Assembly (NCBI RefSeq): GCF_006345805.1 | Contig: NW_021826044.1 | Location: 1-13,914 of the forward strand | DNA from: Octopus sinensis | Lineage: Eukaryota | Reading direction: 5' to 3' | DNA length: 13,914 nt | Part shown: positions 4,576-13,670 of the stretch, piece by piece | Numbering within the stretch: position 1 is the stretch's first letter | Layout of the letters: each line of letters begins with the position of its first letter | Made by a program: the position numbers and the translations under genes | Notes under the pieces: model-generated | Told to the model about the DNA's origin: nothing | Database searches by the model: none | What the model saw: only the letters and a program-made list of their open reading frames with translations

Positions 4576-4868
4576 GCGTCGGGCTTACAGTCGTGAGGTT
4601 GTGAGTTCGATTCCCGGACCGGGCTGTGTGTTGTGTTCTTGGAGCAAGGCACTTTATTTCACGTTGCTCCAGTTCACTCAGCTGTAGAAATGAGTTGCGA
4701 TGTCATTGGTGCTAAGTTGTATCGGTTTTTGCCTTTCCCTTGGATAACATCAATGGCATGGAAAATGGAAGCTGGTATGTATGAGTGACGATAAACAGCT
4801 TTGCCCGGATGTGTGCCTTGGAGAGTAACTTTCTAGGTGCAAACCAAAGGGGATCTTTGCCCTTACCC
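4576..4868 (+). mobile_element. CORE-like tRNA-derived SINE (family C), 5'-truncated
   Basis: B-box GAGTTCGATTCC followed by TTGTGTTCTTGGAGCAAGGCACTTTATTTCACGTTGCTCCAGTTCACTCAGCTGTAGAAATGAG, which resembles the MIR/CORE domain. The same domain occurs at about 13390-13455. Confidence 0.8.
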
Positions 4869-4887
4869 CATATGTATATTTATATAT

Positions 4888-5197
4888 CACCGTGATCACC
4901 GTGACCGACCAGGCTATCAGATGTTGCTATACACCGCTGGTCACAATGCGCTTCGCATTGTTTTATTCTTCAAATGACGCCACCCCGGTGGCTAAACGAG
5001 CAGGCCAACAGAAGAAACAGTGAGAGAAAGTGTGGCGAAAGAGTACAACAGGGATCGCCACCACCCCCTGCCGGAGCGACGTGGAGCTTTAGGTGTTTTC
5101 GCTCAATAAACACTCAGAACGCCCGGTCTGGGAATCGAAACCGCGATCCTACCACCGCGAGTCCGCTGCCCTAACCACTGAGCCATTGCGCCTCTTC
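4888..5197 (-). mobile_element. tRNA-derived SINE, family B
   Basis: Reverse complement of 635-945 with an intact head (GAGGCGCAATGGCTCAGTGGTTAGGGCAGCGGACTCGCGG) and a (CACGGTGAT)2 tail. TSD ATATTTATATAT (4876-4887 / 5198-5209). Confidence 0.92.
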
Positions 5198-5223: not shown

Positions 5224-6026
5224 CAGGGATGTGCCACCTGAAGGTAGGCAGTGCCTACCCTGAATAAAATAGATCAATAGTAACCTTTTCCTTTTATGGC
5301 AAAATGTGCACCTAATTCAATAAAATCATGAAGGTTACTCTGATAACTATGCAAAAAATGCAAATTATTTTGTTGTTTTGTAGATTAGATTGGCATAATT
5401 TGCTCCTGCCTTTCAGTCCCAGTATTAAAGCTACGTACAGAACTGCTGTAGTACACATGCTGATGGTGGTTCAATGGCCCAGTGGTTAGGGCAGCGGACT
5501 CGCGGTCATAGGATCGCGGTTTCGATTCCCAGACCGGGCGTTGTGAGTGTTTATTGAGCGAAAACATCTAAAGCTCCACGAGTCTTCGACAGGGGATGGT
5601 GGTGATCCCTGCTGTGCTCTTTCACCACAACTTTCTCTCACTCTTACTTCCTGCTTCTGTTGTACCTGTATTTCAAGGGGCCGGCCTTGTCACTCTCTGT
5701 GTCACGCTGAATATCCCCGAGAACTACGTTAAGGTTACTCGTGTCTGTGGAGTGCTCAGCCACTTACACGTTAATTTCACGAGCAGGCTGTTCCGTTGAT
5801 TCGGATCAACCGGAACCCTAATCGTCGTAACCGACGGAGTGCTTCCATTCCAGTACACATGCTGCGTACATTCCTACAACAACGTTTTCTTTACGCGATA
5901 TAAAGGCAGAAGTAAACCTGCCTTCAACTCAGTCACACGCCTGTGTTTCGCTTTCTTTTTTGTGTGTTTTACTACATAAACGTCACCAACTGCCTACCCT
6001 GAGTGATTACTAACGGCACCTACCTG
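5224..6026. mobile_element. hAT-like MITE (about 400 bp) interrupted by a SINE
   Basis: Termini CAGGGATGTGCC and GGCACCTACCTG (imperfect TIR). 8-bp TSD ATGTATAT (5216-5223) / ATGTATAC (6027-6034). Subterminal TGCCTACCCTGA near both ends and a hairpin GGTAGGCA-G-TGCCTACC (5243-5259). Confidence 0.65.
5463..5851 (+). mobile_element. SINE with the family B head and a different 3' half (family B2)
   Basis: The first ~185 bp align with the family B 5' part, after which the sequence diverges. TTCCA-type tail and a perfect 13-bp TSD AGTACACATGCTG (5450-5462 / 5852-5864). Confidence 0.9.
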
Positions 6027-7232: not shown

Positions 7233-7672
7233 GGAGATTTGTATGTTTTGCCTTATGTATGTATTCTCGTGCATGTACTTGCATGACTAGACTTGCTCAT
7301 ATATACTTAAATGATAAACTTCTGGAAAGTTTTACAGATTTTTACAGTTCCAGTGATGGACTGGATCTGTAGTCTTCGAATTAGCTTTCTCCTTTCTGGT
7401 TTTGAGAAGCCTAATATCTCAAGGCTAGTATTTAGGCAGTATGTATGTATGTATGTATTCATATGTATACCCACGCCTAAACATTATATATATATATATA
7501 TTTACTATTAGTTATCGCCATACTAATATGGCATTCTTATAAAAATAAGAATAAAGCTGTCCGCTTATTAGCTCCATGAGGCCATCGCCTTAAGTTAGCT
7601 ATTTGATACACCAAACTGTATCCATAACCTTTGAACAAGGGAGGTCAGTCGCTCCACACTACTTGGCCGGCA

Positions 7673-7714
7673 GCTACAGACGCGTTTCGGGGTATTGCCC
7701 CTTTTCAATGCAGC
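7673..7714 (-). ncRNA. Type I hammerhead ribozyme, U3-A8 core variant, minimal palindromic stem III
   Basis: Minus-strand RNA: GCUGCA (stem I), UUGAAAA (7708-7702), GGGG-CAAUA-CCCC (stem II), GAAA (7688-7685), CGCG, UC, predicted cleavage at 7679/7678, then UGUAGC (stem I partner). Stem I extends into a rod spanning 7626-7762. Confidence 0.85.
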
Positions 7715-7803
7715 GTAGCCAGACCAGTAGGTGTCGCTTCTGACAATCTCTGTTCAAAGGTTTTATTTACCTAGCTTCGGTGGAATACATCCACTTGTTT
7801 TCA

Positions 7804-7868
7804 ATAATAGAAATATTAAAATTACTAAGTCTCTTAGAGAGACTTAGTAATTTTAATATTTCTATTAT
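7804..7868. repeat. Perfect 31-bp inverted repeat with a 3-nt spacer
   Basis: ATAATAGAAATATTAAAATTACTAAGTCTCT (7804-7834), TAG, then its exact reverse complement (7838-7868). Confidence 0.97.
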
Positions 7869-7871
7869 ATA

Positions 7872-8107
7872 TTTACTCTTTTACTCTTATTTGTTTCAGT
7901 CATTTGACTGCGGCCATGCTGGAGCACCGCCCTTTAGTCGAGCAAACCGACCCTAGGAGTTATTCTTTGTAAGCCTAGTACTTATTCTATCGGTTTCTTT
8001 TGTCGAACTGCTAAGTTACGGGGACATAAACACACCAGCATCGGTTGTCAAGCGATGTTGAGGGGACAAACACAGACACAAACATACACACCACCACACA
8101 CACCAAT

Positions 8108-8141
<34 letters not shown>

Positions 8142-8240
8142 ATATACACATACACATACACACATATATATATGTATATACATACACACCACACAATATA
8201 TATATATATATATATACATACATATATACGGCATATATAT

Positions 8241-10585: not shown

Positions 10586-11373
10586 GGTCCAGAGAACAAG
10601 GTGTCATCATTCCACTTTTTCCTTCTTTGTACGACCACACCTCGAATACTGCTGTCCCTTGTGGTCTCCCCATGCAAAACAAAGCATCTCGAAGATTGAA
10701 TCACCCCAGAGGCTACTCACTAAACGAATTGAAAGGCATGACTGATCACGATTACTGGGACCGCCTTAAAGCCCTGAAACTCTACTCTCTAGCGCCGCCG
10801 CGAGCGGTACATCATTTGCACGATGCGGAGAATATACCTATTTCTTTACTACCCTCAAGGGGCTAAACACAGAGAGGACAAACAAGGACAGACATAGGTA
10901 TTAAGTCGATTACATCTACCCCAGTGCGTAACTGGTACTTAATTTATCGACCGAATACACCGCCAGCATTCCCCCAAATGACCTGATCATTGGTTTTAAG
11001 GTTCATCCAAGGCTGAGACCACGGGCCATACGTCCCCTGCCCAATTCGGAATCACAGCTTATAGGTACACTGCGACATAAATTTCTTTTCCTCAACAGGC
11101 CCTGTCCTGTTTAACATTGTCCCAAAACTGATCAAAGAGGACATGGATCCCATTACCTTTAAACAGAGTCTGGACTGGACAAACTTCTACAACGAATACC
11201 AGATAAGCCACCCATACCCGCATACAACTCAACAAGAACTCACTACTTGAATGGATCATAATACCACAAAACCTAACTTTAAAAGGATTTAGATAATCCT
11301 ATCAGGTGGTGCTATTAAGTTAGACATGGCCTGGACCAATCTCTGGTCGAAACATATCTAAGTTTTATCTAAG

Positions 11374-12353: not shown

Positions 12354-13071
12354 CGCAGTTTGATCAATAAGTATCCGCGCTGTTGTCATAGTGACAAAGC
12401 TAAAGCACAGAGAGTGAAGCCGCTTGGTACAGATTGACCTTGGACTCTGCTGTGCATGCGCATTAAGTTTTAACGTTCTAGCTCACTTCCGCTATTTACA
12501 GCAGTGCTTGGAAGGAACGTGTGTAGCGTGTGATCGTCGCATTGACCATGACAGAGAAAGTTCTCATGGCGATACTTGCTCAGAGGCTTTCACAAAGTTG
12601 CAGGAAGTGTATGGAGAGGAGTGTATGAGCCGCACACAAGTGCACGTGTGTTTCAGAGGTTTCCAAGATGACAGAAAAAATGTCGATGTTAACGAATGTT
12701 CTGCTGCAACCAGCAGAACTGAGAAACACATCGCAGATGTGCGTACAGCTATGAAGGGAAATCGTCGTATCACCATCCCTGAGTGATCGGAGGGTGTGCA
12801 GGTAAGTTAAAGTTCAGTTCAGTGCAATAGCACTGAAGATTTGGGCGAGACGCGTGTCTACCATGTTTGTGCCAAAACTACTTTCAGTTGACCAAAAAGG
12901 CAATTGTGTCGAGAACGATGAAAAGTTTTTGAAAACTGTGCGTAAGCCCCTGAGCAGGTATCGCCAAGCTTTTAGTAAAATTTGATGCAAATTCTCTGCT
13001 CATCTTTCTGTCATTGTCAATGTGACGATCACTCGCTACACACGTTCCTGATAGTTATTGATCAGACCACG
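12354..13071 (+). mobile_element. Mariner-derived non-autonomous foldback element (718 bp)
   Basis: TA TSD (12352-12353 / 13072-13073). TIRs CGCAGTTTGATCAATAAGTATC and (reverse complement) CGTGGTCTGATCAATAACTATC, enclosing transposase remnants. Confidence 0.92.
12548..12935 (+). pseudogene. Mariner transposase N-terminal (HTH) remnant with stops, deletions and no catalytic domain
   Basis: MTEKV...GDTCSEAFTKLQEVYGEECMSRTQV...F..FQDDRKNVD...TSRTEKHIADVR...NRRITI.E...EDLG.RRV..FVPKLLS.DQK (WVPHEL-equivalent)...ENDEKFLK. It ends before the first catalytic Asp. Confidence 0.9.
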
Positions 13072-13234: not shown

Positions 13235-13670
13235 AATATTTATTTCGAATTTTGGCAGAATTTTGGGATGGGGAATTTAGTCGACTACATCCACTAACTA
13301 CTTGACTGTGGAGGCACGTGGCTTAGTGGTTAGGGTGTTGGACTCATGATCGTAAGGTTGTGGTTTCGATTCCTGGACCGGGTGACACGTTGTGTTCTTC
13401 AGCAAAACACTTCATTTCACGTTGCTCCAGTCCACTCAGCTGGCAAAAATGAGTAATTCTGCGACGGACTAGCGTCCCATCCAGGTGGGGAATTCCTACG
13501 CCATTGAAACCGGGAAACCGGCCCTTATGAGTCTAGCATGGCTCGAGAAGGAACATTTATTTTATATTTTTTTAACTACTTGACTGAAATGAAAAGTTTA
13601 CTTCAGTGGCATTTAAAGTCAGAAAGAAATTCCGCTAAGCATTTTGTCCGGCACACTGACGATTCCTCCA
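13235..13670 (-). mobile_element. Old family A SINE split by a younger SINE
   Basis: With 13309-13586 removed, the reverse complement reads GAATCGTCAGTGTGCCGGACAAAATGCTTAGCGGAATTTC...GATGTAGTCGACT...TGCCAAAATTCGAAA, matching the family A head and tail. Confidence 0.7.
13309..13572 (+). mobile_element. Full-length CORE-like tRNA-derived SINE (family C variant)
   Basis: A-box TGGCTTAGTGG, B-box GGTTTCGATTCC, CORE-like domain and a TTTAT-type tail. Perfect 14-bp TSD TAACTACTTGACTG (13295-13308 / 13573-13586). Confidence 0.92.

Follow-up and report, generated by a model that had tools for sequence, protein, structure and literature searches.

The stretch of DNA analysed here, referred to as the window, comprises 13,914 nucleotides of Octopus sinensis contig NW_021826044.1. 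The motif on its minus strand is, as judged from the sequence, a canonical type I hammerhead in which the core, the GAA, A15.1-U16.1 and H17 are in register. Its elements were read directly from the sequence unless another basis is given:

7673 to 7714, minus strand: canonical type I hammerhead, cut predicted between 7679 and 7678 (sequence, descriptor and pair counts)
7714 to 7709, minus strand: 5' strand of helix I, GCUGCA
7708 to 7702, minus strand: core U3 U4 G5 A6 A7 A8 A9 (UUGAAAA)
7701 to 7698 and 7692 to 7689, minus strand: helix II, GGGG/CCCC, with loop CAAUA
7688 to 7686, minus strand: G12 A13 A14
7680 to 7685, minus strand: helix III palindrome ACGCGU, its partner being the same stretch of a second unit in a double hammerhead
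7679, minus strand: C17
7678 to 7673, minus strand: 3' strand of helix I, UGUAGC
7715 to 7717, minus strand: UAC bulge of loop 1, opposite U7672 (from the fold; UAC or UGC in the alignment)
7626 to 7762, minus strand: long rod that prolongs helix I and ends in a 12-bp closing helix; a domain of the 363-nt unit

The first-pass annotation had placed the hammerhead elements at these minus-strand positions, and direct reading found all of them there; the closing helix that it had described as perfect (7762-7751 with 7637-7626) is indeed matched at all 12 bp. The palindrome at 7685-7680 begins with the final A of GAAA, and its terminal GU is the start of the GUC triplet. The 151-nt minus strand folds at -65.7 kcal/mol (z = -7.2), and none of 200 shuffles was equally stable. 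A descriptor for type I motifs, which allowed C3-G8 or U3-A8 and required 6 bp or more in helix I and 4 bp or more in helix II, matched once in the window and in none of 300 block shuffles. The run against the Rfam hammerhead models that had been proposed gave no match across the whole window at E values up to 1, the motif thus being missed by Rfam; no family at all matched positions 7500-7810 at E values up to 10, and the scans of the window returned only miRNA noise driven by microsatellites. The missing match lowers the membership in the database, not the structural assignment. The UAC bulge at 7715-7717 is a candidate partner of loop 2 in a tertiary contact, as judged from its position. 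Such contacts of loop 1 with loop 2 are known from schistosome-type hammerheads.

The canonical metazoan architecture has a 6-bp helix I, a 4-bp helix II and a short palindromic helix III, and the minimal hammerheads (min-HHR) of Penelope-like elements (PLEs) show a helix I of 4-5 bp, a long helix II and an extra base between positions 9 and 10.1 (PMC4209133). A min-HHR reading of the window motif was ruled out by the 6-bp helix I with its rod, the 4-bp helix II and the lack of the extra base. The earlier framing as a minimal type I hammerhead was therefore abandoned, the helix lengths being canonical by the description in PMC4209133.

The long RNA rod of the first-pass annotation is present but does not stand alone, being one domain of a tandem retrozyme. 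In the genome from which the window derives (2.72 Gb searched), near-identical copies were found 362-363 nt apart, in arrays of up to 10 units. The 363-nt unit, whose length falls within the 150-450 bp of non-LTR retrozyme repeats, has a GC content of 41% and a single type I hammerhead, and its circular form was predicted to fold with z = -7.2; depending on the subfamily, identity to the unit of the window lies between 98% and about 78%. The retrozyme loci have no terminal repeats beyond the unit itself. A frame of 38 codons over the tail in subfamily A was rejected as a gene, since both start and frame are lost in subfamily C, and no ORF with RT and GIY-YIG domains was found in the window or linked to the 50 retrozyme loci scanned. 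Since the size, the GC content of 41%, the tandem layout and the lack of a conserved ORF are as described in PMC7229834, the element was assigned to the retrozymes, and the hammerhead belongs to a 363-nt non-autonomous, non-LTR tandem retrozyme.

Compared with the non-LTR retrozymes of metazoans (Cervera and de la Pena 2020, PMC7229834), of which the mussel repeats measure 350-390 bp, the octopus family with its 363-nt unit is alike in the canonical type I hammerhead, the tandem unit, the lack of a conserved ORF, the highly paired predicted circle and direct repeats of more than 4 bp. It differs in its fixed U3-A8 core, and in its inverted arms, two fixed ends and (TA)n targeting, none of which is reported in the available part of that paper. 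Its helix III consists of the palindrome only, as in amphibian motifs that need a dimer; monomer cleavage is the rule in most invertebrate retrozymes. Canonical type I repeats of similar size in mussel, coral and axolotl accumulate as circles (PMC7229834); for the octopus family, circles are predicted. The suggestion of an overlooked family in this lineage holds insofar as no earlier description was found, but retrozymes are a known kind of element and the U3-A8 pair had been published. Literature searches found no listing of the 363-nt family; supplements, PMC5785218 and Repbase/Dfam lay outside these searches and could list it. For the giant squid, 235 Rfam hammerheads were given, with no detail in the part of PMC6962438 available. 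The hammerhead of the window is real and selected, and the retrozyme family to which it belongs is new.

The U3-A8 pair, claimed in the first-pass annotation to be selected rather than decayed, proved to be the family state. A genome-wide search with a looser pattern yielded 1752 matches with U3-A8 and none with C3-G8 in the same stem II context; the exact 33-nt core is present in 1039 copies (own genome; reversed-pattern controls 0). An alignment was made from 35 fragments of fetched loci, picked to span the subfamilies and giving 34 distinct rows, in which the 3-8 pair is U-A in 30, U-G in one and unpaired in three. The free core position 7 is A, C, U or G across subfamilies, and positions 3 and 8 stay fixed. 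A C3-A8 subfamily suggested by locus L043 was discarded when 30 relatives gave U3-A8 as the norm.

The paired positions of the 35-fragment alignment were occupied by standard pairs in 89.8% of cells, as compared with 33-44% for slid partners. Double changes were found in 70 cells against 29.7 ± 4.4 expected, with none of 500 shuffles as high (relatedness of the rows inflates these counts), whereas the number of pairs with at least one double change (13 against 11.1 expected) was not significant, being reached in 99 of 500 shuffles. Covariation supports helices I and II: double changes fall in three of the six pairs of helix I and two of the four of helix II, each helix being 95.6% paired, figures that kinship inflates. 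The helix III palindrome occurs as ACGCGU, ACUAGU and ACAUGU; its centre pair is standard in all 34 distinct rows, with five pair types, and a stretch that is always a self-complementary palindrome makes sense only as a pairing between two units. That helices I and II and the palindrome covary between subfamilies differing by about 22% implies that the active fold has been selected.

For a natural tandem dimer (locus L002), the minimum free energy fold was a double hammerhead, 4.9 kcal/mol below the forced cis form, with exchanged helix I strands and a pairing probability of 0.83-0.996 for the palindrome. The predicted fold of the tandem dimer is hence the one expected if cleavage occurs as a dimer, as had been suggested. 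Dimer cleavage of PLE hammerheads is the subject of PMC5785218; PLE hammerheads are reported to cut poorly even as dimers (PMC4209133), and in a recent preprint eight of nine retrozyme dimers did not cut (bioRxiv 10.64898/2026.07.22.740005).

That U3-A8 is a documented natural variant, as stated in the first-pass annotation, agrees with PMC3088659, where it is reported as a natural covariation already shown to act in vitro, and with the Schistosoma mansoni motifs of PMC4209133, about 1,300 matches in number. The hammerheads of PMC3088659 and of the S. mansoni PLE Cercyon share the compensatory 3-8 pair with the retrozyme; they are minimal, heterogeneous and mostly single, whereas the octopus family is homogeneous and tandem, with canonical helices. 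The pair itself is consequently not the main news, and the insertion anatomy is more informative. In practical terms, at least 1752 hammerheads of one family are invisible to CUGANGA descriptors and to Rfam.

To describe insertions, the unit was numbered from the cut; the ends lie at about 175 (the short end, S) and at about 238 (the long end, L, which includes a tail), 63 nt apart. The insertion in the window comprises:

7506 to 7834, minus strand: long arm, unit 208-363 followed by 1-174, ending at the short 3' end S
7830 to 7868, plus strand: short inverted arm, unit 200-238, ending at the long 3' end L with the tail
7495 to 7506, plus strand: left 12-bp direct repeat TATATATTTACT (target-site duplication), 1-3 nt common to the element ends
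7866 to 7877, plus strand: right 12-bp direct repeat TATATATTTACT, read from the sequence
7485 to 7500, no strand assigned: (TA)n microsatellite that served as target, read from the sequence

The long arm is 98.5% identical to a tandem unit of L002. The two arms overlap by 5 nt, which gives rise to an apparent palindrome at 7804-7868. The (TA)n tract at 7485-7500 heads a dispersed SINE-like repeat that resumes at 7869-8100, and 7856-8170 has matches of 78-89% at other loci. This copy holds a single hammerhead and no complete unit, and alone it would therefore be unable to yield a unit circle.

Most insertions of the family likewise consist of two opposite arms, in which the outer end is fixed and the inner end is truncated at varying points. 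The first set comprised 42 distinct loci after removal of seven overlapping duplicates and of L043; 30 were two-armed and 12 one-armed, and 28 of the 30 had one S and one L end (scored by eye). A second set of 40 loci, taken from core-pattern lists (on C1, with preference for opposite-strand pairs), contained 26 two-armed and 14 one-armed loci, with L+S in 23 of the 26. Both sets had been chosen for hammerhead content, which biases them to long arms. Together, 51 of 56 two-armed loci combined L with S and none combined L with L or S with S; the five exceptions had one end at another position.

A (TA)n tract adjoins 50 of 62 ends, as compared with 358 of 6147 background positions (5.8%). The flanks of 31 loci were TA-only in 23 cases; six of the eight with non-TA flanks carried a 12-bp direct repeat and two had no convincing repeat. 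In the second set, the eight repeats that were not TA-only measured 12 bp in six cases, 14 bp in one and 10 bp in one, and three loci had no direct repeat. All these lengths include the few bases common to the element ends.

A canonical 3' end is present in 136 arms, of which 107 continue across the cut and 83 are longer than one unit; five stop within 6 nt of the cut, about 4.5 being expected if stops were uniform. Since the arms run past the cut site, the template must have been either a circle or an uncleaved multimer. Both arms of one insertion are nearly always of the same sequence variant, and rare variants are shared in five of 48 loci. In L046:2921-6487 unit variants recur at period 4 and in L049:2355-4836 at period 2, which could reflect circular multimers or DNA duplication. 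A recurrent 5' truncation at unit position 302 was considered and rejected, as it amounts to only a few independent events and three copies with one LINE fusion. In these three (L158, L163 and L189) the same LINE-like 3' end is fused at unit position 302 and the 3' ends differ, so the fusion is a chimeric template copied more than once.

Three runs presumed to be RNA and one unlabelled run, all available as assembled contigs only, gave cover in 27-28 of the 28 bins of one unit. The same four runs contained no joint at a putative intron and no start or end signal, assembled contigs being unable to reveal ends, circles or absence. Loose ends in the large unlabelled run, which may be the assembly's own source, continue in ATAT at the L end. 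At L008:1595-1805 low-depth contigs of one presumed-RNA run, read without a matched DNA control, have clustered A>G differences on the hammerhead-sense strand, possibly a result of A-to-I editing of inverted-arm transcripts.

The insertion scars resemble those of PLEs. Insertions of these elements are described as partial tandems with an inverted 5'-truncated copy and a (TA)n bias, and their tail of 30-40 bp is often at one end only (PMC8557442, PMC3846280). A purified PLE protein, for which a dimer is predicted, cuts the two strands and extends them, and it begins synthesis at two sites inside the RNA which delimit the tail (PMC11167929). The endonuclease-bearing (EN+) PLEs (the Neptune clade, Adineta Pen2a and the anole Poseidon PAc) and the retrozyme are thus alike in partial tandems, the inverted 5'-truncated copy, the tail at one end, the (TA)n bias, two internal RT starts with the hammerhead upstream of them, and duplications of 8-10 bp or longer (PMC8557442, PMC3846280, PMC11167929). 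The retrozyme differs in having no RT/endonuclease ORF, a canonical hammerhead and a repeat that is the whole unit, and its tail measures 63 nt as compared with the 30-40 nt reported for PLEs. MRC1 and other non-autonomous elements of Chlamys are similar in being PLE-dependent, with multicopy head-to-tail insertions; unlike the retrozyme, they mostly lack hammerheads and have 3' sequence common with their partner (PMC8557442).

The search for a partner covered 50 GIY-YIG loci (L081-L130), drawn from 150 scored of 5029 candidates. BLAST of the unit against these 50 loci gave no credible similarity, only two weak AT-rich matches and one separate neighbouring retrozyme copy, and the likeness of retrozyme and PLEs stays at the level of motifs: U3-A8, the ACAUGU palindrome and CTATTAT-like ends. 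A young PLE at L115:2174-5874 (also L116-L119) has two overlapping ORFs, an upstream one of 479 aa without a Pfam match above cut-off and one of 781 aa, at L115:3532-5874, with RT and GIY-YIG. The latter is intact, and copies of the element are 99% identical; in Pfam its RVT_1 falls just below and its GIY-YIG above cut-off, and its CX4CxxC linker is of the Neptune/Nematis type. The element carries a minimal U3-A8 hammerhead with palindrome ACAUGU, has (TA)n targets, with TA-only flanks in all loci examined, and may bear a tail, about 40 nt long. Forty of its loci were picked for having the tail end; an inverted outer end was visible in ten of them, and it was tail-less in all ten. Its long 3' region contains repeated TGATGACGT and GATTGGTC motifs, a TATA-like box and a donor-like site. 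A Neptune-like PLE is accordingly a candidate type of partner, not a proven one.

Other PLEs of this genome vary in their hammerheads, U3-A8 being present in at least two families. The 3' region of an older family (L131-L150) has a UUGAAAA (U3-A8) hammerhead with palindrome ACCGGU and, in some copies, a tail of about 35 nt; its 3' end is loosely similar to the retrozyme by eye only. In L099, from another family, a hammerhead-like A3-U8 motif lies about 290-330 nt downstream of the GIY-YIG frame; its helix I measures 6 bp and its palindrome is ACCGGU (by eye, single copy). The PLEs of L113 and L122 have cores of the C3-G8 type. At L129:7241-7794 a copy of an older retrozyme subfamily (loop CAACAA, palindrome ACAUGU) lies in a TA tract just downstream of a PLE end.

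The best reading of these scars is that a PLE RT copies the retrozyme from an RNA template that is either circular or an uncleaved multimer, with both strands of the target serving as primers. Movement by a PLE is considered highly probable, and, given that, we incline to a circular template. The complete model, in which the hammerhead processes the RNA of a 363-nt retrozyme and a PLE (probably Neptune-type) RT/GIY-YIG protein moves this element, is held to be likely. Tandem arrays would first be transcribed. Neighbouring units would then exchange helix I strands and pair their palindromes, and the resulting double hammerhead would cut after GUC; for this step the fold and its covariation were found here, and cleavage is presumed. 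The released unit, its ends held by helix I, would be ligated to monomer or multimer circles, by analogy with the mussel, coral and axolotl retrozymes. In a (TA)n target the PLE protein would place a nick in either strand, the two being about 12 nt apart, and each target 3' end would prime cDNA at RNA site ~175 or ~238, one per strand; the DNA products of this step are those described above, and the enzyme is the presumed part. Both cDNAs would pass the cut site, extend for up to 10 units and truncate variably, and they are joined head to head with short overlaps, as seen in the insertions. Transcription, dimer cleavage, ligation to circles and double priming by a PLE dimer are the inferred parts of this scheme. 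More tentatively, and with the balance leaning somewhat against it, a dimeric PLE RT may integrate circular hammerhead RNA with each active site committed to one fixed start, primed by a 12-nt staggered cut. If true, PLE integration in general could be read from the rule of one long and one short end, and the circles of retrozymes would be the minimal substrate that it uses in nature. The lineage would also have shifted many of its retroelement hammerheads to non-standard 3-8 pairs, which Rfam and searches for CUGANGA miss.

An uncleaved linear multimer, transcribed from an existing array, could also have been the template of PLE-driven insertion, the hammerhead cutting late, needing a protein, or being an inherited pLTR module with no part in the template. 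Internal initiation requires no free RNA end, and in the anole PLE the hammerhead is dispensable in vitro, insertion being unaffected by hammerhead mutants (PMC11167929). The variants of period 4 (L046) and period 2 (L049), one of them also present in the opposite arm, indicate that templates could hold several different units, and the upstream LINE fragment of the three fused copies implies a linear chimeric template at least once. Against this stand the covariation of helix I, helix II and the palindrome across subfamilies, which implies selection on the active fold, and the circles formed by repeats of similar size in mussel, coral and axolotl (PMC7229834), and we regard a linear template as unlikely.

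A satellite that arose from a solo pLTR by unequal crossing-over at the DNA level, with the hammerhead as passenger, as sketched in bioRxiv 10.64898/2026.07.22.740005, could explain the higher-order periods of L046 and L049 as DNA duplications. Short arrays are scattered over many contigs, and every one has direct repeats, an inverted arm and fixed ends of its own; crossing-over makes none of these, which renders this origin very improbable. Just as improbable is SINE-like movement by a twin-priming LINE RT (L1/Tx1, CR1 or RTE type). Fragments of LINE ORFs are common among the fetched loci, and a LINE 3' end is fused to three retrozyme copies. Twin priming likewise gives inverted arms; in L1, it leaves one fixed end and one variable internal site. 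The retrozyme has its two outer ends at fixed sites within the unit, one end at each site; the local PLE behaves likewise, and the retrozyme copies have neither poly(A) nor a common LINE 3' end. The most improbable reading of all takes the rod, including the hammerhead that it contains, for a spliced intron that came from a PLE pLTR: a conserved donor-like AG/GUAAAU just before the rod, a conserved branch-like CUGAC and pyrimidine run immediately behind the hammerhead and a similar donor-like motif upstream of the local PLE hammerhead speak for it, but the rod is kept in all genomic copies examined and the conserved letters also pair within or beside it.

Movement of retrozymes by PLEs, the preferred reading, has precedents. 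In 2020 a PLE origin was put forward for retrozymes, and a review of that year stated that animal retrozymes show no conserved motif pointing to a partner (PMC7761336). Xenopus retrozymes have since been presented as non-autonomous PLE derivatives, the mechanism being left open in the available text (bioRxiv 10.64898/2026.07.22.740005). That preprint and the present analysis reach the same conclusion, that PLE machinery moves retrozymes, and in both PLEs co-occur; its evidence is co-occurrence and pLTR homology in vertebrates, whereas that from the octopus is the insertion scar, with no PLE sequence homology found. The available text of the preprint contains no 'tail', no mollusc and no insertion-site analysis, and literature searches, with supplements and repeat databases outside their scope, found no PLE-type scars on a retrozyme. 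The link had thus been proposed before and little tested, and the scars, as read from the insertions, point to a Penelope-type enzyme. They provide insertion-level evidence from a young, abundant invertebrate element and a testable pair, a 363-nt RNA with two mapped starts and an RT/endonuclease ORF that is intact, resides in the same genome and shares the target and the end rule. That every two-armed insertion tends to have one S and one L end also bears on the way in which PLEs build inverted insertions.

Other repeats are also present in the window. Copies of a tRNA-like SINE lie at 647-860, 5031-5188, 5472-5650, 4580-4700 and 13310-13440, one inverted pair being 91% identical over 158 nt. 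Inverted MITE-like copies at 1550-1950 and 2320-2740 have arms that are 94% complementary, and a relative lies beside L183. The fragment at 10690-10830 is like a LINE 3' coding region found in L015 and L044, which we take to belong to a CR1-like family. At 12418-12900 there is a broken frame that presumably resembles the N-terminus of a mariner-type transposase.
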